Of a DNA stretch of 64,000 nt, positions 3,352-60,521 are shown piece after piece. The translations under genes and the position numbers were made by a program. The DNA is taken from IMG/VR virus record IMGVR_UViG_3300030060_004280, positions 32,001 to 96,000 of that record; one strand, written 5' to 3'. The stretch's first letter is position 1; the number at the start of each line of letters is the position of its first letter. Below the pieces are notes generated by a model, which was not told where the DNA came from, searched no databases, and saw only the letters and a list, made by a program, of their open reading frames with translations. This stretch comes from a virus.

Positions 3352-3516
3352 TCAGTAGTAATTATCAATCATCTTCTTCAATGAAGATTTATTCTGCTTA
3401 TCTAACAAAGCATAGCAAGGACATTTCGGTGCAGTTTTAGAACACTCCATCTTATCTTTTAACATACAGACGCAAGGAGTTTTTTTAGTTGCACCGCAAC
3501 AGCATTTATCTTTCAT
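3352..3516 (-). CDS. Cys-rich metallothionein-like miniprotein (54 aa, not in ORF track)
   Basis: MKDKCCCGATKKTPCVCMLKDKMECSKTAPKCPCYALLDKQNKSSLKKMIDNYY, 8 Cys. ATGA overlap with the upstream stop. Confidence 0.65.
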   Translation of the reverse strand: MKDKCCCGATKKTPCVCMLKDKMECSKTAPKCPCYALLDKQNKSSLKKMIDNYY

Positions 3517-3710
3517 TTCTTCTTGCCACCCTTTTTCTTCTTGCCGAACTTACCGCGACAGTATTGAACAGCCCAACCGTTTGCATATGCTGATGGATAG
3601 ACTTTGAACTTGCGTTTAGCCGCCGCTTTACCTGCGGGGCATAACTTCTTTTCTATCGAATCCCATGCTTGATTTAGACAAGAGCAATGTTCACAATTAC
3701 ATTCATTCAT
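3513..3710 (-). CDS. small basic protein with AWxxIxK-like leader
   Basis: 'QAWDSIEK' then 'AAAKRKFKVYPSAYANGWAVQYC', a basic module I recall from marine phage proteins. Overlap-coupled on both sides. Confidence 0.75.
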   Translation of the reverse strand: MNECNCEHCSCLNQAWDSIEKKLCPAGKAAAKRKFKVYPSAYANGWAVQYCRGKFGKKKKGGKKK

Positions 3711-5256
3711 AGATACTCACCATTTTTACTATTGTAGGTTTTCCACCAACACCTTGTTTTCTGCTACGCTTGCGTTTAGTAGCCGCGCGTTTCTGTCCTT
3801 CGGACATAGAACCCGATGTTTTTGGAGTCTTATTTGATACCTTCACGCTTGGTCTGCACTTCGGATAACCCTTGCTTGATTTTTTTGCTTTACTACGCCC
3901 GCAAGGAGGGTGTTTGCCGTCTTTATTTTTACGCGAAACATCAACCCACTTCTCTTTGAACCATCGGTTGAGATTCTTCTTGAGTGTGCCGCGCTCTTTG
4001 AAATGTCTTGCGCGGTTAGCATGCATGTCTTCGGGAACAATCGTGCCTCTTGCTGTGTGGCTCATGTCCTTGCCACCTTTACCGGCTACTCCGCGCTTGC
4101 GTCGTTCTTGAGTTAATTCAGTTCGATACTTTCTGCGTTCCGGTGTGGACTCATACTTGGTATCGTATTCCTTTTTATGCTTCTTGGCTTCGGGACTCTC
4201 GGCATGTTTCAACAAGCGCATGGCTATATCCATTGGTTCACCTGTGCGTATATCGGGGTGTCGCATGTCCTGCATTGTCTTTGGAGGGTTACCTTGCGCA
4301 TCAACCAATTGTGTTACTTGTTGCGGCCTCATCGCATCTATCTTTATGTGTGGTTCAAAGTCGGGGTCGGGAGCCATTGGGAATAAACCCATAAAGCCAC
4401 TACCGCCGGGAGGTTTCTTTTTATCCTGCTGATATGTTCGCGTTGGTGTAACTTCACCAACTTTCACCCTGTCGAATTGTTGTCTTTTGTAATGCGGGCT
4501 ACCCATGTCATCTCCCACTTGCAACATATCGGGATGATTCGCTACACAATCTTCTGTTGAGCATCCTACCGCGCCTTCATCGGTGTATATTCTAAGACCT
4601 TCACCGCAATGTGAACACGGACCGCCACTATCTTCTAAATCTCTATCACCTTGAATTGGATTTCCATGCATGTCATAAGATGTGACAGCACTTCTTAGTG
4701 GATGGTTTTCATTTGTCATAGCGCTACCGAATGAATCTCCCAACTGTTTCTGTTTCTGTGCATACTTTTTAGCGGCGCGTTTCTTTTCCATGTAATCATG
4801 CAATCTCTTTTTTTCATCTTTTTCATCCCTGTCGTCGGGGTGAAAGATAGGCGCTTTCTGTATCATGCCGAGCATTTCCATTTCTTCAATTGTTGATTCA
4901 GCGCGTCGAAACCCCATGTTCTGTTGCCTTTCCTCTTCGTTCTCATTAACAACTTGCTGAATGTCTTGGTCGGGTTGAGGTATGGATAGTGTTTGTTGAC
5001 CCGGCTTCATCATTGCCGCGCGTTCAGCCTCATACTTTTCTTGCATCTTTCTGCGTCGTTCTCTTTCTTTTTCATCTGCTTCAACGCGTCGAAGATAGTC
5101 GCTAACTTCTGTTAGACCTGCGTTTTCCCCTGCAAGAGTTGCTTGCGGCGAATCTTGAATTAAAACTTGTTGACCGGGTTGCGCGGCGGCAATTGCCTTT
5201 GCTCTTTTGGATTTTAGCATATCAAAAGCCGAATCAAATACGGTGCTTTTTTTCAT
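3703..5256 (-). CDS. multi-module putative virion cargo polyprotein
   Basis: ATG at 5256 after GGAGG. Modules are separated by 'SAFDMLKS', 'GMIQKA', 'GEPMDIAMRLLKH' and 'TLKK'. Contains a CSHC..CSTEDC ribbon and a 'RWFKEKWVD..PCGR..GYPKCRP' basic domain. Confidence 0.8.
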   Translation of the reverse strand: MKKSTVFDSAFDMLKSKRAKAIAAAQPGQQVLIQDSPQATLAGENAGLTEVSDYLRRVEADEKERERRRKMQEKYEAERAAMMKPGQQTLSIPQPDQDIQQVVNENEEERQQNMGFRRAESTIEEMEMLGMIQKAPIFHPDDRDEKDEKKRLHDYMEKKRAAKKYAQKQKQLGDSFGSAMTNENHPLRSAVTSYDMHGNPIQGDRDLEDSGGPCSHCGEGLRIYTDEGAVGCSTEDCVANHPDMLQVGDDMGSPHYKRQQFDRVKVGEVTPTRTYQQDKKKPPGGSGFMGLFPMAPDPDFEPHIKIDAMRPQQVTQLVDAQGNPPKTMQDMRHPDIRTGEPMDIAMRLLKHAESPEAKKHKKEYDTKYESTPERRKYRTELTQERRKRGVAGKGGKDMSHTARGTIVPEDMHANRARHFKERGTLKKNLNRWFKEKWVDVSRKNKDGKHPPCGRSKAKKSSKGYPKCRPSVKVSNKTPKTSGSMSEGQKRAATKRKRSRKQGVGGKPTIVKMVSIYE

Positions 5257-5386
5257 ATGCCTCCCTCTTCTTTTCGCAACTTTCGCAATGACCCCATTCT
5301 CCAAGTGTTGCCGATGAGTCCCAATAACATCGACCGCAGAATGGCATCCATCGCTTATTCCACCTTTCTATTTCATCTTCGCTCAC
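5234..5386 (-). CDS. small Zn-finger protein (50 aa, not in ORF track)
   Basis: GTG start after GGAG. MSEDEIERWNKRWMPFCGRCYWDSSATLGEWGHCESCEKKREAYEKKHRI has two CxxC pairs and fills the gap between neighbours. Confidence 0.65.
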   Translation of the reverse strand: MSEDEIERWNKRWMPFCGRCYWDSSATLGEWGHCESCEKKREAYEKKHRI

Positions 5387-6614
5387 ACTTGCACACTCCG
5401 CGCGGTCCCTTCATTTGACCGCACCCTGCGCATTGCCTCATGAATGTCTTTTCTTTCTGTTCATCCTTTAACAAACGGAAAGCCAAATCCATAGGTTCAC
5501 TTAATGTGAATTGACCGTATTCGGGAAAATCGTCTGCCTCTTCTTCTTCTTCTAATGGGTTTGAAAGTTTTGTTGGTCTAACAGGTGGCGTAAATCCCGA
5601 ATATTCTTCTTGGAAAGTGGCTTCTCCGCGACCGCGCGGACCCAACTCTCTTAGAGTTTTACCTGTTCTTGTGGATGGTTTATCTTTTCGACCACCTTCA
5701 ACACCACCGCTTGCGCCGAAAGGAATTGTATGACCCGATGGCTCAAACATGAGGTTGTTCGCACCCTCCATTCTCTCATCGTCCGCATCTTCAAAATCTG
5801 CGCGCCTTGCTCCTGTATCAGCATCTATACCGAGTCTTTCTAAAAACTCCCTTGTATTTTTCTGCTCTCGCTCTTCATCTGTTACGCCAAAATTAGTTTT
5901 TTTGCCATGCTTTTCGTCAAGTAATTCATTGTATTCTTCATGCATTTCGTCAGTATATGGGTCATCCACATATCCGTCATCGTCCATGATATTACGCCGA
6001 ACACCAACCATCGCTCGTCTTTGCTCATAGCGCTGTTTTCCTAACTTCTGCATTTCATCTTTCAGTTTTCCAATGTCGACTCCTTCAAAGTTTTTAGAAC
6101 GGAGTGAAGATGGATTCATGCCTAACTTTCGCGCTAACAATGTGATATTAGCATTAGATAAATTGGTATCACCTTTATTTTCACCAAGAGAATAATTTTT
6201 CACCCATCTATCAAAGTGTGAAGTATCAAAGGGTTTCTTAGGCATCTTCTTACGCGAAGACCCTCCTGTTTGTTTGTTAGCGTATCTTAGATTTTGATTG
6301 ACTCCGCTTTCTCTATTCGCTCTTGCTTGGTCTATCTTTTGTTTTACTTCTTCACTCGCGGTTCCTGCGTTGTAAGCATCCATTTCTTTCGCTCTTTGCT
6401 CTCTTCGCGCTTGTCGCTCACGATAGGCTTGTTCTCTTTCTGCTCTTGTTTTTTTCTGTTTAAGGACATTGAAAGCCTTTTTCATTGACTTGTCTTTTTT
6501 GTAATTGCGCTCACCCGGACCCATCTTAGGGTGCTTTCCAACAGCAATAACTAAGACGGAGTGATTGCCTTTTTGCTCCTTGTTAGGTTTCATTACATCT
6601 TCACCTTTAGACAT
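5373..6614 (-). CDS. charged low-complexity protein with two AFxxLK tags and C-terminal Cys cluster
   Basis: 'KKAFNVLKQ' and 'SEPMDLAFRLLKD'; ends CAGC..CKC. GGTGA precedes the ATG at 6614. Confidence 0.8.
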   Translation of the reverse strand: MSKGEDVMKPNKEQKGNHSVLVIAVGKHPKMGPGERNYKKDKSMKKAFNVLKQKKTRAEREQAYRERQARREQRAKEMDAYNAGTASEEVKQKIDQARANRESGVNQNLRYANKQTGGSSRKKMPKKPFDTSHFDRWVKNYSLGENKGDTNLSNANITLLARKLGMNPSSLRSKNFEGVDIGKLKDEMQKLGKQRYEQRRAMVGVRRNIMDDDGYVDDPYTDEMHEEYNELLDEKHGKKTNFGVTDEEREQKNTREFLERLGIDADTGARRADFEDADDERMEGANNLMFEPSGHTIPFGASGGVEGGRKDKPSTRTGKTLRELGPRGRGEATFQEEYSGFTPPVRPTKLSNPLEEEEEADDFPEYGQFTLSEPMDLAFRLLKDEQKEKTFMRQCAGCGQMKGPRGVCKCERR

Positions 6615-6813
6615 CCAAATCACCTATTTTGTGTTTCTTAAACTTACCTTTGTTTAGGCGCGACTCCTGCCAAAGATGACCGCATGGCGGACACTCCCAA
6701 ATCAGCACACGCGTATCTCGTTCATTAACATAGCGCCCTTCTATACGACGCGCGAGAACATTTCTTTTACACATAGCGCATTGTTGACTTAATCTATCTT
6801 TTAATTTTCCCAT
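6607..6813 (-). CDS. Zn-ribbon protein
   Basis: CAMC...WECPPCGHLW. Confidence 0.75.
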   Translation of the reverse strand: MGKLKDRLSQQCAMCKRNVLARRIEGRYVNERDTRVLIWECPPCGHLWQESRLNKGKFKKHKIGDLDV

Positions 6814-6826
6814 ATTATCACTTCTA

Positions 6827-7615
6827 TCATGCAATAAATACCACTTTCATATAGCAAGACCCTACATATGTTGAACTACCGGAGGTTGGATTTGTAGTCG
6901 CTGTCGTAACAACGGGTTGTCCTTTCGCCGCGCCTGTTATCGTGAACTGCATTATCACTTCTGCTTGAGAGGATATGGCAGTTGTGTCAAACTCAATAAA
7001 CCCTGTTTGACTTCGCATTGGGTTTGCGCTCACATTAAAAGCCCCTCCCCCATTTAGGGGTATGGATGACGCATTTGCAACAACAGATGCATTAGCGGTA
7101 GCCGAAGGGTGGCTACCATTGTAAGAACCGTTTTGGTTGTAACCACTTATGATGTATCTAAGCATAACAATTTCTTGAAAATTATTAGTTGAAACATATA
7201 TGGTTCCGGGTTCCATTGTAATGCTGTTTAGATGAGTGAATCCTGTATTTGCTTGAGTTGTGGGTGGCGTTAATGATTGTAAAACAGTTGCTACATAATC
7301 AGCAACAACAATTTCGGTTTGTCCCGCCGTATTGATATTAGTGCCTCCGGCATTTGTTGCTTGAGCGTGACTATTAATCCCTGTGTTTGGGTCTAACTTT
7401 ATTGTATCTCTTACAAACACACTCGCCATAGTTTGATTGTTAGTAAAGGGTGGCGATAATGATTGATTCATTTCTGTTAGACTTACTACACCTAAATCAA
7501 AAGGCGCGCTACCTGTCGGGAAAACCCCCGGCGGTGGCGGTGGTGCGCCACCACCTGCGCGCTTTTTCTTATCCTTCATAGAAGTGCCTTTTTTCAACGC
7601 CCACATTGGATTCAT
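6827..7615 (-). CDS. hypothetical virion-associated beta-rich protein
   Basis: Directly after the tail fibre gene. T/N/S-rich body behind a basic and poly-Pro N-terminus ('MNPMWALKKG'). Confidence 0.6.
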   Translation of the reverse strand: MNPMWALKKGTSMKDKKKRAGGGAPPPPPGVFPTGSAPFDLGVVSLTEMNQSLSPPFTNNQTMASVFVRDTIKLDPNTGINSHAQATNAGGTNINTAGQTEIVVADYVATVLQSLTPPTTQANTGFTHLNSITMEPGTIYVSTNNFQEIVMLRYIISGYNQNGSYNGSHPSATANASVVANASSIPLNGGGAFNVSANPMRSQTGFIEFDTTAISSQAEVIMQFTITGAAKGQPVVTTATTNPTSGSSTYVGSCYMKVVFIA

Positions 7616-7619
7616 AGTA

Positions 7620-9691: not shown

Positions 9692-10039
9692 TTAATCCAA
9701 CTCCAATATGAATGAGAAACGCACTTCATTCTGTGCGCTCTTATTGAATCCATTTATATCTGCGCGATAAACAGGCACAAACTCACCCGTCGATGGGTCT
9801 TTGTATTGCAAATATATTTCTTTAATAGGTGAAGAATAAACATGCGAAGTGTTGAAACTGCCTTCAACCAATACGCTGTTATCATCAATAATAGTAACGG
9901 TAGGTGACACCCGCGCTAAGGTTCGTGCGCCTCCATCATCGGCTGATGCTACCGTTCCATCACTACCTATGTGTAATTCATTCACAAGCCCTGCAAGAGT
10001 TTCAACAAGTCTTCTCTTGATGCTGTTTAGTATCGGCAT
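9692..10039 (-). CDS. small tail/baseplate protein (fibre attachment type)
   Basis: 'LHIGSDGT..IKEIYL..FNKSAQNEVRF' pattern resembles tail-fibre attachment domains; lies between hub and fibre. Confidence 0.55.
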   Translation of the reverse strand: MPILNSIKRRLVETLAGLVNELHIGSDGTVASADDGGARTLARVSPTVTIIDDNSVLVEGSFNTSHVYSSPIKEIYLQYKDPSTGEFVPVYRADINGFNKSAQNEVRFSFILELD

Positions 10040-10626
10040 TATGCTACCCTCCGCGCTACAAAGTCATCTCCATCATAAATTAATCTATTATCGTCATAAT
10101 CAACAGGCACTACATGTTCTAAGTGTTCCGGTAAGATTCTCTTGCGGGATATTTGAGGGCGAGTGTGCCATTTCACCTTATCTCGCCCTTGTGCAAACTC
10201 TTTATCTTCTGTTATTTTACCTGCCGGTCGAGTCTTGATGCCTATTATCGCTTTTCTATCTCTTCTTTCATCATCTGTCACTCCACCCCAAGTGTCTTTG
10301 AACCATTCACCCGCTAAAAGAGGATTACCTTGAGTGGACCATTCGCCATGTTCTTCTGCCAAGTCAGCCCATTGTTTATTCGACAATTTGTTTCTTCCGA
10401 AACTCCATATAGCGGGGTCTGTTGAACCTGTGTATCTATCAAGTATATTTTTATCTTGCAGGGAAGAAGGTGCGCGAGGCTCTATGCCCTCCATTAATGT
10501 CTGTTGAACTGCACTCATTGGAATTGTTCTGTATGCTTGAAATTGGTTGTCATCTTGACTGAATGGCCTTACCCTCATAGCATCGTCACCCTTGAGAAAT
10601 ACCCAAGCGATTTCTATTGGTGACAT
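10039..10626 (-). CDS. AWxxLK-tagged protein, possible ADP-ribosyltransferase-fold domain
   Basis: Leader 'MSPIEIAWVFLKG'. 'QAYRTIPMSAVQQTLMEGIEPR' and C-terminal 'RILPEHL' resemble Tpt1/ART-like signatures. Confidence 0.4.
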   Translation of the reverse strand: MSPIEIAWVFLKGDDAMRVRPFSQDDNQFQAYRTIPMSAVQQTLMEGIEPRAPSSLQDKNILDRYTGSTDPAIWSFGRNKLSNKQWADLAEEHGEWSTQGNPLLAGEWFKDTWGGVTDDERRDRKAIIGIKTRPAGKITEDKEFAQGRDKVKWHTRPQISRKRILPEHLEHVVPVDYDDNRLIYDGDDFVARRVA

Positions 10627-33365: not shown

Positions 33366-33719
33366 TCACTCCTGTTCTTGCAACTCTTTCAACTTATCTA
33401 TACTCAAACCGAGAGGATTTGGGTCAGTCTGCGGAACAGGAGGTGCGCTACCATCAACAAACTTTGTGTTTGGGTTAAGTTCTTGTATGCGCTCTTTTGA
33501 ATCAAATATGTTCGCTATCTCCGGTTTTTGCATTTTATCGCGCGCATGGTTGTTTTTTGCTTCTGTAATGAATTTGATTGCATCTTCACTACTCATTTCG
33601 GGGAATGATTCTTTCATTGACGCTAACGCTTCTTGCATATTCTTTGACTCTCTCGCTATCAAATCTATGGTGCTAAATCCACCTTTGATAACAGACCAAG
33701 AAGCGTTAAGAGGGGACAT
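33366..33719 (-). CDS. tagged hypothetical protein
   Basis: Leader 'MSPLNASWSVIKG'; tightly packed in the operon. Confidence 0.7.
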   Translation of the reverse strand: MSPLNASWSVIKGGFSTIDLIARESKNMQEALASMKESFPEMSSEDAIKFITEAKNNHARDKMQKPEIANIFDSKERIQELNPNTKFVDGSAPPVPQTDPNPLGLSIDKLKELQEQE

Positions 33720-33721
33720 AC

Positions 33722-39073: not shown

Positions 39074-39300
39074 TAGACTTCACTCCTTCTTGCTTGCTCT
39101 TCTCGCAGTTGCGCTTCTAATTTATCCGCTTCTGCTCTCTTCTCTTCTATGAGTCTTCTTAACTCATCAAAATGAGGCGCGTATTCTTGCGCTCCCTGTT
39201 CGATTTGTTGTCGTTGCTGTTCTCGCTTCGCTTGCTCTTCTGCGAGCATTCTGCCAATTTCAGCAGGGTCATTTTTGAGAAGAAGAATCCATTTCATCAT
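39073..39300 (-). CDS. short coiled-coil protein with WxxLLK leader
   Basis: 'MMKWILLLKND' followed by an E/Q/R-rich helix. Confidence 0.6.
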   Translation of the reverse strand: MMKWILLLKNDPAEIGRMLAEEQAKREQQRQQIEQGAQEYAPHFDELRRLIEEKRAEADKLEAQLREEQARRSEV

Positions 39301-40840: not shown

Positions 40841-41992
40841 TCATTGTAGGTCGCGAATTGAACCGCTTGCACCAAAGAAACTACCCCATAGTTCACCCAT
40901 AGTTCGGTAAAGTCCTTCCTGTCCGAGCCTGTTAATCGCGAATGGGTCACCTGTTTCAATACCACTTTCAAAGTATTGTGTTGGAATTGCGGTTTGGAAC
41001 CACAAGTAGTCAGTATCAAGATAATAGATACGGGATAGAGAACTTGCACCTTCGTCCGGCATATCCTTTGTTGGGATAATTGGAACTCCGTTGTAAGTTG
41101 CTACAATAAATCCTGCTTCGATACCCGGAACACCCTTCACACCGGAATAGGTAGGGGTGATTCTCTTAGAATCCATGAATCTTTGTTGAGATTGCAACAG
41201 TTGTTGAGCGCGCATAAGCGTATCATATCCTGTTAGCATAACCTTTGGATTACCACCGCGAGTCCAAATCTGTTGGAATAGACCATCAAGTTGGTTTAGC
41301 GATAGGTTTCTCTTATTGTTTGCATCTGTTGATACATCAACTTCTGCGCTATGGAAATCTTTTGTTCCGTCGCGAGTAATAGAATACATATCGTGCTTAG
41401 TTAGCGAAGTAGTAATGTGGTTTGTTCCTGTTGTCATCTTGTCCGGGTCGGATGTGAGTCTGTCAAGTGACTCAAAGTTGTTACCGGCAGTTGTGTCAAC
41501 ATCAACAAGAAGCATCTTGTTAATCATTTCAGCGTGATGCTTACCCATTTCTTCTTTTAGAACCTGTCTAACATCGCCAAGTCCATCATCCTTATCGGAT
41601 AGGAACATGCTTACTTCGGATAGGTCGAAGGTGTGCGCGATAGTCTTAGGCTTAGCCGCTACATGCAGGAACTCCGGTCTTTTGGTTTCCGGTAGTGTTC
41701 CATTTTCTGCGATACCACCGCTAACGCCGGATTCAGCGCGCTCGGTGAGGATTCTCCATCCACTTCGCTCCCACGGTTTCTTAGGAAGAATTGAAAACGC
41801 GTTAAACTCTTGGTTTAACTGCGACCATACTTTACGGCCATAAACCGCTTGATATGTTCCTGCGGTTGTTGACATAAGTGGGCTGTCTGCCTTCAAAATG
41901 TCGCCGCTTGAGTAGGTGTAGCCTGTTTGAGCCGCACCACCGTAGTAGTATCTTTCCATGTCTTGAACTGTTCTTACATAATTTCGTGCCAT
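40841..41992 (-). CDS. major capsid protein (HK97 fold)
   Basis: 383 aa right after the protease. 'VWSQLNQE..LPKKPW..GWR', 'TYNGVPIIP', 'IYYLDTDYL', 'GSIRDL'. ATG at 41992. Confidence 0.9.
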   Translation of the reverse strand: MARNYVRTVQDMERYYYGGAAQTGYTYSSGDILKADSPLMSTTAGTYQAVYGRKVWSQLNQEFNAFSILPKKPWERSGWRILTERAESGVSGGIAENGTLPETKRPEFLHVAAKPKTIAHTFDLSEVSMFLSDKDDGLGDVRQVLKEEMGKHHAEMINKMLLVDVDTTAGNNFESLDRLTSDPDKMTTGTNHITTSLTKHDMYSITRDGTKDFHSAEVDVSTDANNKRNLSLNQLDGLFQQIWTRGGNPKVMLTGYDTLMRAQQLLQSQQRFMDSKRITPTYSGVKGVPGIEAGFIVATYNGVPIIPTKDMPDEGASSLSRIYYLDTDYLWFQTAIPTQYFESGIETGDPFAINRLGQEGLYRTMGELWGSFFGASGSIRDLQ

Positions 41993-41997: not shown

Positions 41998-43410
41998 TCA
42001 CTCTCCCCTCAATGCTTTGTCGGCCATGCGGTGAACTTCGTCCCACGACATGTTTGCCATTTCCGTAGTATCGGGAATTGTAATTGATGTGGTTGAAGCA
42101 CTCTTAGTAAGAGTTTCTCCACCACCGGATGAAACGCGACTGATTCTTTCATCAAGCGCTACAACTGCTTTTTGCAATTCAAGAAGAGGTTTGCGGGAGT
42201 CAAAGTTTGCTCGCGCTTTCTCATTCTTTGCGATTCGCTGTTCTTTAGAAAGTCTGTCAGCGAAGTAGTCACCGAGAGAACCTTTGAATTGTTGCTCAAC
42301 GGATGCCGCCTTATAGACTTCGTAAGCCGCTTCAATGTCACTTTGAGAAACATTTTCGGGCATAATAAAATCGCTCTTAATTACATTCTTGTTACCGGAT
42401 GGTGCGCTACCAAAGTTTTGCTTTGGTCGCTTGCCGGAATCATCTTCGCCCGCACCTTCAAGAGAACCTTGTCCTCTATGGTCGTAGCCGGATTGTCCCG
42501 GTCCATATCCTTTATTCACGCTGTCGAAGTGTGCGCGAGCATCAGCAATGTCGTGTCCTTGACTCTTTGCTGTTTGCTCAAGCCAATTCAAATAGTCCAT
42601 TGTTATCATATCATCTGCTTTTGCTGTCATGTCATCACCATACATCATATCGTCGTCCTCATCATCCTCTTCATCCTCTTCTTCATCGTCAAGGTCAAGT
42701 TTAGGTTTGGACTCTTTCTTTTTGTCACCGAATGGGCCGGGGTCGCCGTCACCATCCGGGTCAAGTTGTGGAGGCATGCCTTTGTCAGCATCCTCGTCTT
42801 TCTTTTTCTTATCATCTTCTTCATCATCGAGTTTTTTCGATAGTCGTTCTAATACATTCTGTAATTCTGTCATAGGGTCGCTCATGGTATCACCTGTGTC
42901 CTCCTTGAGAATCCTAAATTGTGCTTCGGGGTTGATACCCTTCTCGCAAATAGTTACCTCATGGAGTTCCATACGACGGATTTCACGGTAATCACCGCGA
43001 GTAGCGTCGCTCTTGTTAACACGCTCAAAGGCTTGACCGCCTATTGAGAATGACCGAAGGTTGCCCTTGCGGATTTCGGATGCAACTTCGCGGGCTTTTT
43101 CAATATCGCCGCGTAGTTTAATCACAACAAACATGCCGGTATCATCCACTTCGGATTTCCATACACGGCCATTGCTATCTGTGTAAGAAGGTATTACCGT
43201 TCCTACTTGAATATTGGAGTGCGCAAGTTGAACATTGCGGAATCCATCTGCTTTCATAAATCCACTAAACGCATCTTTCAAAGCGCTACGGGTAATTAGG
43301 TCGCCTTGCTTGTCGACCATTTCAACCGATGCATAACCTGCAACTACCAAATCGTCACCGAACCCCTTGAGAACAAGAGGGTTAGATTGAGAAGGTGCAA
43401 GAATTGCCAT
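41998..43410 (-). CDS. prohead protease (XkdF/S78-like) fused to acidic scaffold
   Basis: 'VVAGYASVEMVDKQGDLI', 'LAHSN', 'LRSFSIGG', 'LHEVTIC..GINPEA'; D/E-rich and coiled C-terminal half. Confidence 0.9.
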   Translation of the reverse strand: MAILAPSQSNPLVLKGFGDDLVVAGYASVEMVDKQGDLITRSALKDAFSGFMKADGFRNVQLAHSNIQVGTVIPSYTDSNGRVWKSEVDDTGMFVVIKLRGDIEKAREVASEIRKGNLRSFSIGGQAFERVNKSDATRGDYREIRRMELHEVTICEKGINPEAQFRILKEDTGDTMSDPMTELQNVLERLSKKLDDEEDDKKKKDEDADKGMPPQLDPDGDGDPGPFGDKKKESKPKLDLDDEEEDEEDDEDDDMMYGDDMTAKADDMITMDYLNWLEQTAKSQGHDIADARAHFDSVNKGYGPGQSGYDHRGQGSLEGAGEDDSGKRPKQNFGSAPSGNKNVIKSDFIMPENVSQSDIEAAYEVYKAASVEQQFKGSLGDYFADRLSKEQRIAKNEKARANFDSRKPLLELQKAVVALDERISRVSSGGGETLTKSASTTSITIPDTTEMANMSWDEVHRMADKALRGE

Positions 43411-49695: not shown

Positions 49696-50037
49696 TCAAT
49701 AATAGTCTGTTGCGCCTGTAAATGCACTTGGAGGACTCTTATCCGGGTCACCACCCGCTACATTCTCATGTGCTGATAGCGCATCATCGTGAGATGAATG
49801 TTGCTTTTCGTCTAAATTAACTTCTTCTTTCTTTGGGTCTGTGCGCTTTACATCTTCAACTTCAATAGTTTGATTATTGGTATGATAATATCCCGGCTTT
49901 ACTTTCTCGACACCGCGAACACTCTCAAACCCTGTTGCGTTTTTAGACCCAAACTTGCCTTCAACGGCTTTTGCTTCTTTCAATAGCGCTTCTAAATCCG
50001 GTGCGTGTTGCCCTGCTTCGACTTTCATTGGTTTCAT
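49696..50037 (-). CDS. hypothetical head-module protein
   Basis: ATGA-coupled ORF with GGAGG upstream. Confidence 0.7.
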   Translation of the reverse strand: MKPMKVEAGQHAPDLEALLKEAKAVEGKFGSKNATGFESVRGVEKVKPGYYHTNNQTIEVEDVKRTDPKKEEVNLDEKQHSSHDDALSAHENVAGGDPDKSPPSAFTGATDYY

Positions 50038-50381
50038 GAGTCAACCCTCCTGCCTTCTGCTACTGCGGCTACATTAGCCATAGCGTGAATATCCTCCCAT
50101 GACATTGCATGCCAATCTTCATTTGAACTTGGCATATCTATACCCATACTTTCACTTATTTCCTTAGATGCTTTTGAAATAACTTCATCGCGCTCTCCGC
50201 GAAGTGGGTCACCCCACACATCTTCACTTGCAGGAGTAACTGCTTTTACAAATCCCGACTTGCGTAACATTGCTTGAGGATTAGATACTTGCTTTCGCAA
50301 CATACCTAATTCTGCATCCATCGCCTCCATCTTACCAATTAGCGCTTTCATAAGCACCATAGCGTCGGCTTCTTGGGACAA
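50034..50381 (-). CDS. putative accessory scaffolding protein
   Basis: N-terminal coiled coil. C-terminal 'MSWEDIHAMA' matches the protease-scaffold C-terminus 'MSWDEVHRMA'. Confidence 0.6.
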   Translation of the reverse strand: MSQEADAMVLMKALIGKMEAMDAELGMLRKQVSNPQAMLRKSGFVKAVTPASEDVWGDPLRGERDEVISKASKEISESMGIDMPSSNEDWHAMSWEDIHAMANVAAVAEGRRVDS

Positions 50382-50766: not shown

Positions 50767-52620
50767 TTAAAAACCGCTTTCTTGGTTCTTACTTGTAGGG
50801 TCTTTAGCGGCTTCAACAGCGTCAAGAGCCTGTTCAGTTACCGTTTTTTCCGAGCCGCGCTGATTCTTTTTTGAAGTGGGTGCGCCACTCAAGTGCGTTT
50901 CCGAACTAAGAGGCGCGGGTCCATTATCGCGCTGTCCTGTTCCTTCACCAAGTCCCATAGCGCCGCCCTTTTCCATCATCATGATAGCCTGTCCGCCTCC
51001 CGATGCTCCGCCTTGAGGCGGTAGCCCCCCGCCGCCTTGAGGAATCATTGCACCGCCCGGAGGTGTCCCTTGTTGTGGTGGCGGCATAGGCATACCGCCG
51101 CCGGGAGTTGGAGGTGGCATTCCACCCGGAGGCGGCGCTCCACCCGGAGGCGGCGCTCCACCTGCACCACCGGCAGGAGGTTGTTGAGGTTGAGGGTCGG
51201 GCTTCTTGTAAGTGAATCGTATATCTCGCCCTGCATCTTCGGTTAATTCCGGTTGGAAACCAAGCGCTTGCATACGCTGTGCAATATTGACTTCTTGCTC
51301 ATCGCGTCGTAGTCTTGTAACATCATCCTCTTCTTCGTTAGGGTAAAGAGTCAATTCCCATTCGTCGACACCCATTTCTTTCAATAGGCGCGGGAATAGA
51401 TTTTTTGCATATATTTTCTGTCCGTATTCAACAGCACGATTAGTGACAAGAATCTGCATACCCTCATTGTTGAGTCCGCCGGACTTACCTGCGTCCATCA
51501 TAAAGATACTCGATACACCATAAAATGCCGCTATACGCATTCTTACTTCATCACGAACCTGCGCGTATTGCATTTCATCAAGGCTATCCATGAAGCGCAC
51601 AAACTCAACTTTACCTCGACCGGATGCTGATTCTATACCAACTTTCGGAATATAATGAGGGTCGCGTTCCATCTTCTCTTCTGCGCCTTTCCAAAACGAT
51701 GCAGTTGATTGAATGTTATCAGTAGTGATTGCGAGAACACCACGCGGTATTCTTCGCTTTTGATATGCAAGGTAAATGTAATTATCCATAGCGGTAAGAG
51801 TTTGGGCTTGCCTCCACATTGTAGCGACAGGACTACGCCCATACAATTTAGAAGGATTAAACTTACTTGTGTGAATAATTTCACCATCAATGTAATACTG
51901 CGTTTTACCACTACCTGCGGTGTTGATGTAGTGAACATCTTGTAATGGTAGCGAGCAAACTTCACACTTTTTATGGTCGCCATTGTGAGGGTATGTTCTG
52001 TCACGATGAACAGGGCATATGAGATACCTGCCACCTCTTGCTCCGCGCTTATCAGCAACTATCCTCATGAAAGTTGGGTCACCACGCATAACTTCTTTAA
52101 TTCGGAAAAACTCTATACCGCCGCTATCGGGGTCAATGAAATACTCTTTGATAAGAATAAGGAATGCATCATCAACAATGTCTAAATCCCATTCTATTTC
52201 ACGCATAACATCCATAAAAGATTGGTCCATGCTGTTGCGTTGGTCTAACAACCAACGAGGATAAAGAACTTGGTCTGCGCTTGGGCTTTTGAACTCTTCA
52301 TTACCGCATATTCGACATTCTGCAACGGTATCATGATTGTATTCTTCGCCACAATTGGTGCATTTTTTGTGAAACTTTTTTTGCCAATAATGGCCGCGCC
52401 TAAATATTTCTTGACATAGTGTGTTAATTGTAGTTCTCAAAACAACTGATTCTTGAACAGTTGCATATAGCGCGGGAATGCTTACACCTTGAACAAGAAC
52501 AGGCTCTTGAATACCACTTTTCCAAAGCGGCATAATTGGTTCGGGTGTAGTTCTGCGACGGAATGGTTTTGACAAAGACGACAAGAATCTGCCGACTACA
52601 CCTTTCTTTTCTTCAACCAT
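50767..52620 (-). CDS. portal protein with two Zn-finger insertions and Pro/Gly-rich tail
   Basis: 'DLDIVDDAFL', 'LYGRSPV', 'IPRGVL', 'RIAAFYGVS..M...GGLNNEG'; lies between TerL and protease. Confidence 0.9.
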   Translation of the reverse strand: MVEEKKGVVGRFLSSLSKPFRRRTTPEPIMPLWKSGIQEPVLVQGVSIPALYATVQESVVLRTTINTLCQEIFRRGHYWQKKFHKKCTNCGEEYNHDTVAECRICGNEEFKSPSADQVLYPRWLLDQRNSMDQSFMDVMREIEWDLDIVDDAFLILIKEYFIDPDSGGIEFFRIKEVMRGDPTFMRIVADKRGARGGRYLICPVHRDRTYPHNGDHKKCEVCSLPLQDVHYINTAGSGKTQYYIDGEIIHTSKFNPSKLYGRSPVATMWRQAQTLTAMDNYIYLAYQKRRIPRGVLAITTDNIQSTASFWKGAEEKMERDPHYIPKVGIESASGRGKVEFVRFMDSLDEMQYAQVRDEVRMRIAAFYGVSSIFMMDAGKSGGLNNEGMQILVTNRAVEYGQKIYAKNLFPRLLKEMGVDEWELTLYPNEEEDDVTRLRRDEQEVNIAQRMQALGFQPELTEDAGRDIRFTYKKPDPQPQQPPAGGAGGAPPPGGAPPPGGMPPPTPGGGMPMPPPQQGTPPGGAMIPQGGGGLPPQGGASGGGQAIMMMEKGGAMGLGEGTGQRDNGPAPLSSETHLSGAPTSKKNQRGSEKTVTEQALDAVEAAKDPTSKNQESGF

Positions 52621-54056
52621 TAAATCAGCCTCTCTATGCGGTGAATGTCGTCGACGAGCCGTATAACTTCATTGTCGCGCTGTCCCCATGCAAGAACTTC
52701 TGCCTCATCAACTTTCCACTCTCGGAGCAATTTATCACGCTCTTCGGGAACATCTTTCCAATTTTCCCACTTCACTATACGATATAATTCTTCTCTTCGT
52801 GATTTAACAAGGTTGCTTTTAGACCCTCTTAAATCGAGTAAATGCAATACTGCGTTGGCTTGATTCTTTTTCATTTGTAAATGAGGCGTTATACCTTTGA
52901 GTAATTTGCGCAAATCATCAGCACCATAAAACTGCAAACGATGTTGTGTGCGCTTACTATTCTTGTGTATTTTCAAATCAGTCTGTAACACTCCGCATCC
53001 AAGCGACTTATGCAATTGCTCACAATGCAACTTGCCCCTACCCCCTGTCGCTACAAACCCTGCTCTTGGTTCTCCGCGTTTTGTGATTGTGATATACCCG
53101 TCAGCATCGAGAAATCCTGCGGCATAAGCCCATATATCTTTGACAATTACAGTATCGTCTTGTATGATTCCATAGTTAGTGCCTATCTTTTCAATATCAT
53201 ATTCGACACCATGCATCTTCAACAAAGATGCCATTTTTCTAATAGTTAGATGTTTAGGTGAACCTATTGAATTGTATATTTCATTTGAAGATAGTGGACC
53301 TCTTTCTATAAGAATGTCTGCTGAACGCGTAAGCCATATTGCTTCTTGTTTCTTTATGTCGTCTATCGGATGCAATGTCTTTCTCCATTGGGATTTGGCA
53401 TCCTTTCTCATTTGTCTTGAATCAAGCCATAATTGCAATTGGTCTTGGTTAAAGTCACCTTCTATTTGAGATAATTTAGTAATTACATCGTTAGCCTTCT
53501 CCCACATAGCGCATGCTCTTCGCAAAGACATTTCCTTTGTCACGCCATGTTTTCTCAAAGCGTGTAAGTTTCTATCGGAAACTCCAAGAGCGCGTATAGA
53601 TGATAAGTGCTTATTAGCCCACGGTATAGATTTCAATGTTGATTCAACCTCTTCTTTTTTCGCAATTCGTATAGCGTCTATGGCAAGGTCTATGTCTTCT
53701 CGCATATCTTTTCTATCGCGTCGCGCCATTCGCAACTCCTTCACCATTGATTCTGCATCTTTTCCAAACATTGATTGAAACCAACCATTGTGAGGCATAG
53801 CGCTTTTGAGTTGTTGCGTAGGTTGAACTGATTGTTGTTGCGCTACCACTTCTTGTATTTTCTTTTTCTCTTTATCCTGTTCCATCGCATCGGGTTGAGA
53901 TGGGGTTGTTGGTGCGGATAATTCACCTTCTCCTTGTGACTGTGTTTTAGGAGCATCGCCCATATTTGGATTTGCTACTGTTCCTGTTGCTTTACGCAGA
54001 ATGGCATCTATTTCTTCATCCCTAAGAATAGAGCCGGTCCACATTAACAATTCCAC
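52620..54056 (-). CDS. fusion protein: helical N-terminus, winged-HTH-like segment, single LAGLIDADG domain
   Basis: 'WAYAAGFLDADGYITI', 'LHKSLGCG', 'LLKGITPHLQMKKNQA'. Confidence 0.85.
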   Translation of the reverse strand: MELLMWTGSILRDEEIDAILRKATGTVANPNMGDAPKTQSQGEGELSAPTTPSQPDAMEQDKEKKKIQEVVAQQQSVQPTQQLKSAMPHNGWFQSMFGKDAESMVKELRMARRDRKDMREDIDLAIDAIRIAKKEEVESTLKSIPWANKHLSSIRALGVSDRNLHALRKHGVTKEMSLRRACAMWEKANDVITKLSQIEGDFNQDQLQLWLDSRQMRKDAKSQWRKTLHPIDDIKKQEAIWLTRSADILIERGPLSSNEIYNSIGSPKHLTIRKMASLLKMHGVEYDIEKIGTNYGIIQDDTVIVKDIWAYAAGFLDADGYITITKRGEPRAGFVATGGRGKLHCEQLHKSLGCGVLQTDLKIHKNSKRTQHRLQFYGADDLRKLLKGITPHLQMKKNQANAVLHLLDLRGSKSNLVKSRREELYRIVKWENWKDVPEERDKLLREWKVDEAEVLAWGQRDNEVIRLVDDIHRIERLI

Positions 54057-54457
54057 CTTTTCAAAGCCGCGCCTTTCGGAGTCAATTTACCGCCTTTACT
54101 TGTTGGTCCTTTCACTCCACCCATTCTCGCACAAAACGATTTGCGCCTTTTTGCTTTTTTACCACCGGGTTTCAACTTACTCGGTTTAGTTGTAACCGGA
54201 GGTTTTAGATTCGCGCCGCTTTTTCGCTTTGCGGCGGCTCGACCTTTAGCGTTCAATCCACCTTTACGGCTGTGTTTATTTGGATTGTAACCATGAAACG
54301 GCTTGCTTTTCTTTTTGGCTTTGAGAACTTCAAGAGCAACTTGAACAGGTGAGCAACAATCACAAAATGTAACCTCTTTTGCTATATCGCTATCATTCAT
54401 CATCGCTAACTCTTCTGCCGTTATTGGCTCATGTTCTATGTATTCGTATTCTGTCAA
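54044..54457 (-). CDS. tagged highly basic protein
   Basis: Acidic leader ending 'SPVQVALEVLKA', then 'GGLNAKGR..NLKPPV..RRKSFCARM..ALKRWNC', a basic module I recall from marine phages. Confidence 0.8.
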   Translation of the reverse strand: MTEYEYIEHEPITAEELAMMNDSDIAKEVTFCDCCSPVQVALEVLKAKKKSKPFHGYNPNKHSRKGGLNAKGRAAAKRKSGANLKPPVTTKPSKLKPGGKKAKRRKSFCARMGGVKGPTSKGGKLTPKGAALKRWNC

Positions 54458-55854
54458 TCAATCAACCCCGCCATCATTTCATCAATGTCGACTATTCTTT
54501 CACGGAACTCGGTAGTTCCCCAATGCGCTAATGCAAGCGCGATAGCAAAGTCATCATGTCGCCCGATGCTATCTAACTTACCCTTCTTAGACATACCGAA
54601 CATGAGTAGTTCCCGTTCTAACTCGCTCATAAGGGTTCGGGAGTTTTCATCACCCCACGGTAATCTTAACTGTTCTTTTTCAAAACGCATAACCAACCCC
54701 ATCAATAATGATTCTCGGCGTTGACGCGTTGAAATAAATGTCTTAATTGGTAAATCTGTATCTGCGCGTAGTTCAGTTGCAAACACACGCTGAAAGTTGT
54801 TGGCTTCAAGTTCTATAACCATAGGTGCAAACTTGGCATTGATTTTCTGTATCTCCATAATTTGTGTTCGGAAATCCATATTCTTTCTGCGAACTACATG
54901 CACTAATTCAAGCAGTTCGGGATTGGTTGATGGGCGGCGTAATACCACCATAACAGTATAGTCAGCGCTTCTATCCGATGAAATAGCGGGGTCCCAACCG
55001 ACAAAGTATTGGTCGTCGGGGTCGCCTTCTGCTCTATTGATAATTCTTAAATCGCTATCTTTAGCGGCCTGTAATACCAACGATGGGAATAAACTGCTCA
55101 TATCGTCCATCGGTTCACAAAGATATTCTCGCGCAAAAGCAATAGCGGGCATATCGTTACGCCTCGCATCAAGTGAATCTAAATCCCAACGCTCCGGCCA
55201 TAGCGCTACACCCTTTGAGTTGATAGCGGGATATGTTTCAACAAGGTAACCCTCACGCTGTTCTAACTCGGTGTAAAGGTCAGTCGGTGTAAAAGGTGTT
55301 CCGACAATCATTAATTTTGAAGTGTGGTGAAGTGTAGGAACAAGAACTTCATAAAACCAACTTGCAACTCTTTGCAATTCTGTATCTGTTGTTCCCCACA
55401 GAATGTCGTCACAAAGAATCAAGTCCGGGTGAATACCACGGATAGCGCCACCAACCGACTTCGCGCTAATGTTAGAACCGTTGCTAAATCCAAAGAATGT
55501 TTTAGACCACGCATCGGCTTTTTTCATTTTTGCTAAAAATGGTATTCCGTCAATCAAATCGTTTAATGTGCGCATATGGTGTATAGACTGATGCAAACTG
55601 TGGCTGATAAGAACCGCTTTACATTTTGGATTGAACGCTACTTTCCAAAGCAAATAGCCGAGAAATAGCGTTGACTTACCGTGGTCCCTTGCCGCTTTTA
55701 CACAATAGCGCTTTTGAGTTTCAAGATTATTATACCATTCTTCGTGATGATGTGATAACTGAAAGCCAAGAATATCTTCAAAGAAGAACTTGAAGTCGCG
55801 CTTCGCTACTTCATAATCTATCTCTTCAAGTGTTTCAAGGCTCAAGCCCTGCAT
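54454..55854 (-). CDS. terL: terminase large subunit
   Basis: Walker A 'ARDHGKST', Walker B 'ILCDDI', 'IVGTP', nuclease 'VGWDPA' and 'HDDFAIALALA'. Confidence 0.95.
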   Translation of the reverse strand: MQGLSLETLEEIDYEVAKRDFKFFFEDILGFQLSHHHEEWYNNLETQKRYCVKAARDHGKSTLFLGYLLWKVAFNPKCKAVLISHSLHQSIHHMRTLNDLIDGIPFLAKMKKADAWSKTFFGFSNGSNISAKSVGGAIRGIHPDLILCDDILWGTTDTELQRVASWFYEVLVPTLHHTSKLMIVGTPFTPTDLYTELEQREGYLVETYPAINSKGVALWPERWDLDSLDARRNDMPAIAFAREYLCEPMDDMSSLFPSLVLQAAKDSDLRIINRAEGDPDDQYFVGWDPAISSDRSADYTVMVVLRRPSTNPELLELVHVVRRKNMDFRTQIMEIQKINAKFAPMVIELEANNFQRVFATELRADTDLPIKTFISTRQRRESLLMGLVMRFEKEQLRLPWGDENSRTLMSELERELLMFGMSKKGKLDSIGRHDDFAIALALAHWGTTEFRERIVDIDEMMAGLID

Positions 55855-55858
55855 GCGC

Positions 55859-57535: not shown

Positions 57536-59322
57536 GACGCTTTGATAATGTCAACCACATCGCGCCCTACTTGAAAATGTTCCGCTACTTTCGACCAATC
57601 TCCAATACTCATAGCAATAGCGCGAACATCTGTTGATTCAAGGTCAAGTTGTTTCGCTAAAACTATCATATGGTTTCGATTATGAGGATTTAGATTAGTA
57701 TATTGAACGCTTTTCATTATTTGCGCGTTTTCCCATGTGTCGTGCATTTGCACTCTTTCCATAACTGCGGCGATAGCGCCCATCGGGTCGTCAAAAGAAG
57801 TCATAAAATTATCATCTTGTTGATTACGCATTGTTGTCGTCCCTTCGGGCGCAAATGGGTCATTCGCTGATGGACCCGCGCCAAGATTAGGGTCATTCAA
57901 AGGTGGACCACCACCTACACCTGCGGGTGGTAATTGTTGATTTTCCATCATTGGGTCATAATCTCCTACACTAATATGGTCGGGTAATTGGTCGTGAAGG
58001 TGTCCTAACTCATCTGTTATTCTGCCATGCATTTCATGATGCTCTTGAGCAATACCCATGTTCATCAAATCAACAGGTCTGCCTCCTTGTTGTATAGCGA
58101 ATGATTTCCAACCGCTAATAACTGATGCCGGAGGTTTTGAAATACCAAGCGCGGGTGTAATATCAACCCCTAACTCTTCTGCTGTTTTGAGAGTAGCCAA
58201 TATTCTCTTCGCCGCGTCTGTTCTGCCTCTATCAGCACCACCAATTCTCCCGTCAAAGTGACTTCTATGCTTATGATACATGTCCGCTATGGTGTTATCT
58301 TTGTTTTGACCGTCTATACCAATGTATGTCTGTATTCGATTGACGATATTATTGAGTTGAGTGGCTGAACCCTTTTTGCCTCGACCCATAATTAACTGTG
58401 CGGCGGGTGCGCGAGCCATTGCTTCTGCTCTTCGCGCTGATACACCTTCTCTAACTAACGCATTTATCACTTGTAGCGGTGGCCTACCCTTTGAAGTAGG
58501 AACAAAAAACGCATCCGGTAAAGATGCGATAATATCAGCAGGTCTTATCTGCCCGTATTGGGTTTTTTCATTATATTTTTCCGAGCCATATTCGGGAAAA
58601 TGGTGATTATCTTTACTTGTTGGGTCTTTCATGTTACTGCTGTATCTTTCAAGAAGGCTTCTCATTCTGTATGAACCATCAGCCATCTTTTCGGGTGCGC
58701 GAACTATATGTTGAGGCTCAAGAACATTTTGCCTCGCTCCTAAATCGCTTTCAACGCCTAACGCTTGTATAATTTTACGGAACTCTTTTTCAAAATGGAA
58801 CGCTCCCGACTCAAGGAAACGACCGAGAGTGTTATGTCTAACGCTATTATAGTGCAAATTGATGAGTTGACCCTTTGAATCTCGCGTTTTTCTTGCAGAA
58901 GTTGGAACATTTCGTGCTTCGTGTTGCCCGTAATGATTACTTTTGTATTCGGGATGCAAATTACCGTTCTCATCAAAGGGAATTGGCACAGTATGAAAGT
59001 TATCACCTTCGTTTCTTTTAGTCCTGTTGAAGTCGATAGCGGCTTTATTCATGATTTCTTTAGCCTTTTGTAGCGCTAAATTACCCGGAAACATTTGCCT
59101 TAACTTTTTATTTTCTGCAAGATACCTTGCCGCCGCCTCCATAGGCCAATGACGCATGTTATCGGGTATCTCTTTGTGCGGTTTCCCTGTTGAATGGTCT
59201 ATATGAAAATGTGACATTTCTTTATGCGGTGAACTCGGATGAGGAAATGACATTGGAATCAATTTACCTCCTGCTCCGCGCTTATACACACCTTTTCCCT
59301 TGATGATATTATCATTCATCAT
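57514..59322 (-). CDS. hypothetical 602-aa basic, His-rich protein
   Basis: Long ORF coupled to neighbours; no recognised catalytic motif. Confidence 0.8.
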   Translation of the reverse strand: MMNDNIIKGKGVYKRGAGGKLIPMSFPHPSSPHKEMSHFHIDHSTGKPHKEIPDNMRHWPMEAAARYLAENKKLRQMFPGNLALQKAKEIMNKAAIDFNRTKRNEGDNFHTVPIPFDENGNLHPEYKSNHYGQHEARNVPTSARKTRDSKGQLINLHYNSVRHNTLGRFLESGAFHFEKEFRKIIQALGVESDLGARQNVLEPQHIVRAPEKMADGSYRMRSLLERYSSNMKDPTSKDNHHFPEYGSEKYNEKTQYGQIRPADIIASLPDAFFVPTSKGRPPLQVINALVREGVSARRAEAMARAPAAQLIMGRGKKGSATQLNNIVNRIQTYIGIDGQNKDNTIADMYHKHRSHFDGRIGGADRGRTDAAKRILATLKTAEELGVDITPALGISKPPASVISGWKSFAIQQGGRPVDLMNMGIAQEHHEMHGRITDELGHLHDQLPDHISVGDYDPMMENQQLPPAGVGGGPPLNDPNLGAGPSANDPFAPEGTTTMRNQQDDNFMTSFDDPMGAIAAVMERVQMHDTWENAQIMKSVQYTNLNPHNRNHMIVLAKQLDLESTDVRAIAMSIGDWSKVAEHFQVGRDVVDIIKASCLEALT

Positions 59323-60521
59323 GATATTCCGCCCCTTCTAACATACAACCCATAAGCATGCGCGCCCCACATTGTAGGGTCATCTTCGGGGTCTGCTTCT
59401 GTTGCACCTGTTGGCGCAGAAGTCATGCGGCGATGAGCGTTAGGTGTCGGTCCATCCGGTGCAGGGTCAAGCGATGCATCCGCTTTTCGCGTTAAACCTC
59501 TCAATAACTTCTCAAGTTTTTGAATTAGACGACGATATTCTTGTTTATCTCGCATCGTCATACCTTTAGCAAGTAGCGCGGCGAAAGGTGATGAACCACC
59601 CATCGCTAAGTCAGTAGCCTTTGAGTGTTCTGCACCCATTGGAGTGTCGGGTTTTCTCGGCGTGTGTGTTTTCTTTGGTCCTTTAGTCGCGTCCCTGTGT
59701 TCAGCCGTTCCTCTTGGTGCATGAGCAATTCGCGATTCGGGCAATTCTGTTGGAATTGAAGGAGTAACAGGTTGAGTTGGCATAGAACCCGATATTTCTG
59801 CTCTTCTTGCTTCGGATTCGCGAGCGCGGGGTGAACTCATCATAGCGGGAGGACCCGAACGCATAGATGCTGTTGTAAGATAATTGGGAGTGGTGCGAGT
59901 TTGCCTACTGTATTGCATTGAAGGTTGAGTAGCCCTATGTGATGCGATAACTCCGGTATATTTACCCGGATTACGACCTGTATCAACTCTTAGAGGGTTA
60001 CCTGCTTTGCGTTTGCGGGTCTTTTTCTTAGAATCTATTGTTTTAGTTTTCTCTTTACGACTCTTACGACCCTTTTCAGCGCGCTGTCTTGCGCGAACTG
60101 TGTCTATTGTAGTAGTTTTCTTAGGCTTTTCCCTGTCGTATTTTGGCGCGTCTTTTTTTTTAATTACATCAAAAGCCAAATCCATAGGTTCGCCGGTCAT
60201 AACACCCATACCTAACCCATTACCTTGTGGATTAGCGCCCGGAACAACCTCGCTTTGCCCCACTTGACCCATTTGACCGGCTTCTTCTTGAAGTCGCTCT
60301 TCATCTTCTTTGTTTTGCTGTGGTATTTTGATTTTCAAATGCTGAATACCTTGCAATAATCGAGCGCGTTTCTCTTGCTCATTCTGTTTTTTAGCGTTAT
60401 GCTTGGCGCGCTCTTCGGAATCTTCACGCCCTACCGAAGAATCTTCTTCGATTTCTTCTGCGCTTTGGCGTGGATTGAACCGCAAATTACCTGCGCTACC
60501 CGAACCATCTCCCATCGGCAT
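59319..60521 (-). CDS. tagged basic disordered protein
   Basis: Internal 'GEPMDLAFDVIKK' followed by a K/R-rich region. Confidence 0.8.
   Translation of the reverse strand: MPMGDGSGSAGNLRFNPRQSAEEIEEDSSVGREDSEERAKHNAKKQNEQEKRARLLQGIQHLKIKIPQQNKEDEERLQEEAGQMGQVGQSEVVPGANPQGNGLGMGVMTGEPMDLAFDVIKKKDAPKYDREKPKKTTTIDTVRARQRAEKGRKSRKEKTKTIDSKKKTRKRKAGNPLRVDTGRNPGKYTGVIASHRATQPSMQYSRQTRTTPNYLTTASMRSGPPAMMSSPRARESEARRAEISGSMPTQPVTPSIPTELPESRIAHAPRGTAEHRDATKGPKKTHTPRKPDTPMGAEHSKATDLAMGGSSPFAALLAKGMTMRDKQEYRRLIQKLEKLLRGLTRKADASLDPAPDGPTPNAHRRMTSAPTGATEADPEDDPTMWGAHAYGLYVRRGGIS

Follow-up and report, generated by a model that had tools for sequence, protein, structure and literature searches.

In bacteriophage T4, the capsid-targeting sequence (CTS) of the internal proteins occurs only at the N terminus, where the gp21 protease cuts it off at L/I-x-E, and the packaged Alt protein is an ADP-ribosyltransferase (ART). 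Encapsulins use a cargo-loading peptide of approximately 10 residues, located at either end of the cargo, which docks diverse proteins inside an HK97-fold shell. In adenovirus (pVII/pX) and African swine fever virus (ASFV; pp220/pp62), basic core modules follow one another in a string, with a protease signal repeated between them. The internal proteins of T-even phages are diverse and share only the CTS, which places them in the scaffolding core (PMC3012670); in the jumbo phages SPN3US and phiKZ, the prohead protease is reported to cut many proteins of the head interior at a common motif, and these proteins are ejected into the host (PMC7411985, PMC10052503). Here, we describe a short peptide tag found in a stretch of 64,000 nucleotides (the window; positions 32,001 to 96,000 of IMG/VR record IMGVR_UViG_3300030060_004280), which represents the late, structural-gene half of an archaeal tailed virus of the magrovirus type, with nearly all genes on the minus strand. 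The tag behaves as a portable module, attached to proteins that have nothing else in common, and we class it as CTS-like, with differences in its sequence, its flexible position, the archaeal host, and the protease family. To our knowledge, there is no earlier example of a CTS-like tag in archaeal viruses. The founding magrovirus paper, which reported these viruses as dominant in the surface-ocean archaeal virome, mentions no motif (PMC5434244), and a 2025 survey mentions a helix-turn-helix motif only.

The consensus of the tag is x-[GSM]-[ESTN]-P-[MF]-[DE]-x-A-[WF]-x-[LVI]-L-K, with a conserved helix of 10 to 12 residues. Its occurrence was analyzed with a hidden Markov model (HMM) that was iterated over approximately 200 related loci and built mainly from other genomes; a first HMM made from the EPMD instances alone was too sharp, missing the W and N-terminal forms, and the iterated profile was used instead. 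Across all open reading frames (ORFs) of these loci (2.4 million residues), approximately 720 instances scored at least 7 bits, compared with 7 in the shuffled ORFs. The window proteome (21,163 residues) contains 6 profile hits of at least 6 bits, compared with 0.3 per shuffle, and 7 matches to the regular expression P[MLIV]x(2-4)[AS][WFML]xx[LIV]K, compared with 0.14 in shuffles (maximum of 2). An earlier sequence-only reading of the window, from which the tag was first proposed, had named a motif no commoner than in shuffled proteins as evidence against itself; the opposite was found. Scanning the DNA of the viral collection with back-translated EPMDxAFxxLxK yielded 66 loci, with fewer than 1 expected (an estimate from approximately 42 bits of pattern information), and in these 66 loci [GS]-E-P-M-D-[IL]-A-F-[QR]-L-L-K is almost invariant and the ORFs that harbor it differ widely in length and content. 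The W form, PMDxAWxxLK, occurs in at least 120 loci. The lysine is present in 86% of the tags and the leucine in 91%; this lysine and the leucine preceding it are the best conserved residues after the alanine.

The position of the tag within proteins is variable. Among 594 unique contexts, it directly follows the initiator methionine in 226, is internal in 316, and lies 0 to 10 residues (mostly 2 to 4) from the stop codon in 52, and some proteins have a tag at each end or even three tags; the N-terminal or between-module placement originally proposed describes the first two groups and misses the third. At the codons of the invariant P, A, L, and D residues, the entropy of the third position is 1.6 to 1.8 bits, compared with approximately 0 to 0.5 bits at the first and second positions. 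With fixed amino acids and near-random third codon positions, the tag is kept by selection as a peptide and is not a DNA repeat. In the structure model, the tag forms a separate helix (residues 5 to 16) with a low-confidence linker, and G, S, T, and P are frequent in the 20 residues ahead of it. The tag is modeled as a short amphipathic helix on a flexible linker, with a proline N-cap followed by M/F-D/E-x-A-W/F-x-L/V-L-K.

All of the peptides quoted in the sequence-only reading are present in the window, on the minus strand (as are all tag coordinates below), and its claim of a shared tag on about 10 proteins holds for 7 to 8 of the 10 (6 by profile at 6 bits or more and 2 by orthology or paralogy). 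The canonical internal tag GEPMDIAMRLLK / GEPMDIAMRLLKH (4204 to 4242; 16.7 bits) lies in ORF 3703-5256/5304 and is followed by phrog_6437-like and DUF5872 modules assigned by PHROG and Pfam. The same ORF has a tag-like SAFDMLKS (5209 to 5232), 6 residues past the ATG at 5256, whose 3.8 bits are not significant alone and which is supported solely by its position. In ORF 5373-6623, the canonical tag SEPMDLAFRLLK / SEPMDLAFRLLKD (5463 to 5501; 16.1 bits) precedes a 29-residue Cys-rich tail, and a subclass tag, KAFNVLKQ (S-M-K-K-A-F-N-V-L-K; 6456 to 6479), is located behind a conserved N-terminal domain. This subclass, S-M-P-M-K-K-A-[WMF]-x-x-L-K, has 9 unique contexts and none in shuffles, and it sits behind the same N-terminal domain in four related loci (L023, L024, L045, and L054). 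ORF 10039-10626 begins with the N-terminal tag SPIEIAWVFLK (MSPIEIAWVFLKG; 10588 to 10623; 16.9 bits), attached to a cargo with a Y-R-T motif, and ORF 33366-33728 begins with SPLNASWSVIK (SPLNASWSVIKG; 33681 to 33716; 7.1 bits), in whose homologue in genome G003 the tag reads PFDSAWALLK. Near the C terminus of ORF 33722-34291, the tag PMATNAAWSIIK / PMATNAAWSIIKE (33785 to 33823; 6.0 bits) is followed by a 20-residue Cys-rich tail; the peptide NIAWNKLKK in this ORF is weak (<3 bits), with its N-terminal position as the sole point in its favor. The canonical internal tag GEPMDLAFDVIK / GEPMDLAFDVIKK (60156 to 60194; 12.2 bits) marks the junction of the acidic N-terminal and basic C-terminal parts of ORF 59319-60521, and in the orthologue alignment of this protein, at identities down to 43%, it is the best-conserved island.

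Two further instances are assigned through their relatives. The diverged tag SPVQVALEVLK (SPVQVALEVLKA; 54317 to 54352), directly before the DUF6321 module (E = 5e-15) of ORF 54044-54457, aligns with the canonical NPMDEAWAVLK and TPMEKAFALIK at the same place in orthologues. The degenerate, family-specific QAWDSIEK (3648 to 3671), before the DUF5872-like/phrog_27331 module (E = 6e-16) of ORF 3513-3710, is kept as G-M-x-x-A-[WF]-D-x-L-E-K-K in 33 homologues. Two of the proposed instances are unsupported, namely, NPMWALKK (ORF 6827-7615) and KWILLLKN (ORF 39073-39300), neither of which receives a profile score or has a homologue in the related loci. The regular expression and the profile both find no tag in the major capsid protein (MCP), portal, TerL, tape measure, 5,633-residue, and 2,081-residue proteins, and the sequence-only reading had likewise seen none in the core tail proteins.

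What the tag is attached to varies greatly: clustering of the 521 unique downstream modules gives 240 groups, which bears out the proposal of a portable module on unrelated proteins. Recognizable cargo includes the basic DUF6321 and DUF5872 domains, an HD_4 phosphohydrolase, DnaJ-type zinc fingers, an HExxH protein, and many Cys-rich tails; Pfam gives nothing significant for most cargo modules, which are ORFans. In the DUF5872-like and DUF6321 families (3352-3516, 3513-3710, and 54044-54457), Cys clusters (C-x-C-x-H-C, C-D-C-C) directly precede the tag, and other tags are followed by Cys-rich tails. The cargo of ORF 10039-10626, which is free-standing behind an N-terminal tag in the window, is internal behind a canonical tag in a 1,029-residue ORF of locus L186, and DUF6321 proteins have the tag at their start in some genomes and an extension of 36 to approximately 170 residues ahead of it in others. 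In pelagiphage HTVC131P, gp35 (L202) is a small basic DUF6321 protein without a tag, and its gene lies between the scaffold and capsid genes. Because this copy is untagged and so placed, the DUF6321 cargo appears to be older than the tag and head associated by position, which suggests that DUF6321 is a widespread head-associated protein.

The ART-like cargo that had been proposed is represented by one N-terminally tagged family, "RQTTLGEFHPD...YHGT" (L153:2715-3191, L103, L140, L092, and others). Its structure model (predicted local distance difference test [pLDDT] score of 77) matches ART-superfamily structures only, Tpt1/KptA first and then PARPs, exotoxin A, and pertussis toxin (best E = 8e-4; template modeling score of approximately 0.4), and the match to Pfam PARP is weak (E = 0.029). 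With regard to the catalytic triad (H/R - Y/S - E), the family has an invariant H-G-T and a strand resembling G-x-Y-A-[ST]; the third acidic residue is unplaced. We predict an ADP-ribosyltransferase fold for this family, with Tpt1/KptA as the nearest structures, and regard it as a candidate NAD+-dependent effector. The window protein 10039-10626 is possibly ART-like as well, as judged from a short Y-R-T-I-P motif region in common with the YHGT/YRG family; its fold model (pLDDT of 42) was unusable, and a related-locus search with this protein as the query returned no relatives. A tagged HD_4 protein (RelA/SpoT-type HD; E = 5e-7) is found at L088:1844-2269, with relatives in L110, L148, L158, and L176, and may be an alarmone or nucleotide-signal hydrolase. 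A 450-residue protein at L111:5902-7251 has a tag at both ends, and its H-E-V-G-H motif suggests a zinc metalloprotease.

The tag is restricted to a single lineage of magroviruses rather than being a feature of archaeal viruses at large, which narrows the archaeal-virus analogue proposed in the sequence-only reading. A magrovirus MCP is encoded in all near-complete tag-bearing contigs of three sets (10/10, 2/2, and 1/1). The window MCP is 69 to 94% identical to those of hundreds of IMG/VR contigs and approximately 33% identical to those of haloarchaeal siphoviruses such as HVTV-1, and a search by MCP alignment returned only close relatives (at least 72% identity). In the late half of HVTV-1, a cultured relative, no tag scores above 2.8 bits. 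When 596 Gb of cellular DNA was scanned, with each of 185,579 prokaryote species represented by one genome, the tag matched 7 times, compared with approximately 6.5 by chance according to our own estimate; none of the 7 is a cellular gene family, and 2 are misbinned magrovirus contigs. The latter, L205 (NZMJ01000140.1, in a "Maricaulis sp." metagenome-assembled genome [MAG]) and L206 (NZQM01000026.1, in a "Parvibaculum sp." MAG), encode homologues of window ORFs 60939-61610, 62743-63636, and 63641-63991 together with canonical tags.

The tagged genes are arranged in variable arrays in the late, structural part of the genome, in line with the sequence-only reading, which had seen no tag in the early genes. 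In G005, a complete genome of 115.5 kb, approximately 20 of the 22 tags lie in a co-oriented array at 44.8 to 61.5 kb, directly upstream of the TerL-portal-protease-MCP block, and many of the adjoining small genes each have a tag at the start. The arrays of G004 (53.7 to 58.8 kb) and G003 (83.7 to 89.7 kb) show a similar pattern to the one at 44.8 to 55 kb in G005, with content that differs per genome, and G003 has a second cluster of tagged genes after the giant tail-region gene. In the window, tagged genes are found at both ends of the late block and among the tail genes, 7 to 37 kb from the MCP gene. The head genes themselves comprise the HK97-like MCP (40841 to 41992, minus strand; SU10_MCP and Phage_capsid Pfam matches), the portal (50767-52620; Pfam), TerL (54454-55854; Pfam), and a single fusion of an S78 prohead protease, an acidic linker, and a scaffold-like C-terminal region (41998 to 43410, minus strand; Peptidase_S78, PF04586, E = 3e-9, and alignment with orthologues). 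The HK97-type protease that had been expected alongside the tagged genes is thus encoded in the same genome.

In its architecture, this system parallels the CTS and internal proteins of T4, as had been suggested: a short peptide is the sole common feature of diverse proteins, the variable arrays lie by the head genes, the prohead protease is encoded nearby, and basic peptides and an ART-fold enzyme are among the cargo. The magrovirus tag nevertheless has no sequence similarity to the CTS, the protease is of the S78 type, and the host is an archaeon. Unlike the strictly N-terminal CTS, the tag may be N-terminal, internal, or C-terminal and often occurs in several copies. For magroviruses, head packaging and cleavage are proposals. 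The jumbo phages differ in that what their processed proteins have in common is a cleavage motif, not a 10-residue helix, and in their long, mutually unrelated propeptides. In contrast to the polyproteins of adenovirus and ASFV, most magrovirus units are separate genes with their own tag, and the fused tag-module forms look like secondary fusions. The magrovirus MCP is of the HK97 type, as is the encapsulin shell, and docking of the encapsulin kind fits better than a cleaved leader because the tag is position independent and C-terminal tags exist. The consensus is different, however, and the encapsulin cargo gene lies beside the shell gene, whereas the tagged genes are 10 to 40 kb distant from the MCP gene in a 100-kb genome.

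We favor the reading that the tag is an address label that recruits accessory proteins to the virus head, with a probability of roughly one-half. In this mechanism, the tag would dock accessory proteins on a conserved partner within the assembling procapsid, for which the scaffold region of the protease-scaffold fusion, the protease, and the inner face of the HK97-like capsid protein are candidates. Cargo would then be packaged alongside the DNA and enter the host at infection, and would include small basic or Zn-binding DNA-binding peptides as well as ART-fold and HD-domain enzymes; these cargo types fit injected or head-internal proteins. A co-packaged S78 protease may cut past the tag lysine, which would free N-terminally tagged cargo and split multimodule ORFs into units. 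Docking in the head, cleavage, and host delivery are all inferred steps. A stronger version, in which the tag is a universal, position-independent encapsidation signal that docks directly inside the HK97 procapsid, on its shell or scaffold, in the manner of encapsulin cargo-loading peptides, is put forward only tentatively. If this were true, an archaeal virus group that ranks among the most abundant in the ocean would have an open-ended injection system with hundreds of interchangeable effectors, and the addition of 12 residues would be enough to load any protein.

Several observations count against targeting to the head. The viruses are uncultured and their tagged proteins are predicted from genes, and the head receptors named above are candidates. 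Tagged genes are also located amid tail genes (33.4 to 34.3 kb and 10.0 to 10.6 kb), which makes the tail or baseplate a possible destination, and in G005 the late block does not contain every tag, with one or two weak ones found elsewhere. Another shared viral partner would also fit the distribution, because every checkable tagged genome encodes a thermosome. With regard to the cleavage step, the residues after the tag lysine show no P1' preference, and tags 2 to 4 residues from the C terminus make cleavage pointless there.

The thermosome and the tail are the basis of the best-surviving alternative, in which the tag docks a conserved viral hub other than the capsid, serving either as a client signal for the thermosome or as an anchor for the tail, the baseplate, or the 5,633-residue protein. 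The thermosome-type chaperonin gene (1507-3030 in the window) was found in 12 of 13 near-complete tagged genomes and in 3 of 3 further fragments, and the tagged genes among the tail genes, together with a head receptor for which there are only candidates, would be compatible with such a hub. We know of no group II chaperonin that uses a sequence tag, however, and tiny basic or Zn-binding cargo peptides would hardly need a chaperonin. The chaperonin gene belongs to the replicative block, with replication proteins as the presumed clients of the chaperonin (PMC5434244), and the tagged arrays adjoin the head genes in the same orientation. Docking on such a hub is therefore considered unlikely.

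The conserved lysine raises the question of whether the tag is nothing but a recognition and cleavage signal of the S78 protease, which would convert polyproteins into small units and have no targeting role. The 316 internal tags in multimodule ORFs and the high conservation of the terminal L and K are in line with this, as are the cleavage of HK97 after lysine (K103/S104; PMC10275583) and the F-R-I-L-K sequence that closes the protease domain. The latter (42904 to 42918, minus strand) is invariant in 7 orthologues, matches the C-terminal half of the tag, and is the only nontag match to [FWM][RQ][ILVM]LK in the window proteome (3 observed versus 0.11 expected); it may be an autoprocessing site of the protease. 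A possible maturation site is found at MCP residues 31 to 36, [DE]-[IL]-L-K-A-D (I-L-K at nucleotides 41891 to 41899), where L33, K34, A35, and D36 are invariant in 12 sequences and K-A-D is common to the window MCP and that of HVTV-1. A pure cleavage signal is nonetheless quite improbable, since cutting at the 226 tags right behind the initiator methionine, or at the 52 tags by the stop codon, would release nothing useful, ten conserved residues including the helix-face A and W/F exceed the usual need of protease subsites, and a P1' preference is lacking. Because 52 of 594 tags are near the C terminus and some proteins are tagged at both ends, the common function would be docking, with cleavage optional. 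The leader cut after lysine that had been envisaged by the sequence-only reading thus fails for these tags and is optional elsewhere, where a cut by the S78 protease after the tag lysine is plausible as a second step, to which the protease type, the HK97 cut site, F-R-I-L-K, and the MCP L-K-A-D are indirect hints.

Two other explanations can be treated briefly. The tag might be a shuffling joint that promotes the recombination of cassettes between genomes and has no function at the protein level, and cargo indeed turns over extremely fast beside a constant element, with tag-module units fusing and splitting between genomes; we regard this as very improbable, however, and the reading of a DNA repeat or recombination joint is largely refuted by the codon evidence, since tag DNA with near-random third positions is too diverged for homologous recombination. 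Mimicry of a host short linear motif that binds a host hub protein after infection is equally remote and was rejected on the prokaryote genome scan, for although viral effectors often imitate host motifs by means of short conserved helices, 7 matches against approximately 6.5 by chance over 185,579 species genomes included no cellular gene family.

Beyond the cargo tag, a second short motif, [ML]-[ST]-W-[DEA]-[DE]-[IV]-H-x-[ML]-A, is found approximately 17 to 23 residues before the C terminus of two different head-module proteins, the protease-scaffold fusion (41998-42060) and a 115-residue protein downstream of the portal (50034-50110, at its C terminus). It is distinct from the tag and kept in all magrovirus orthologues seen, and it may be a capsid- or portal-binding motif of core assembly proteins. 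In the interval between the portal and TerL, a 478-residue ORF (52620-54056) has a LAGLIDADG-like G-F-L-D-A-D-G-Y motif; a Pfam search with this ORF gave no match, and its position is kept in G003 to G005.

Most magrovirus accessory genes are ORFans, and a single tag marks a large, fast-evolving set of them as encoding probable virion-delivered proteins. The tag therefore offers a direct route to listing candidate host-takeover and antidefense effectors for uncultured archaea. If it is a head-loading signal, it would represent a CTS-like system with an unrelated sequence and a more flexible grammar, and it would provide a mechanistic link between viral capsids and encapsulin cargo loading and might supply a small packaging tag for engineering.

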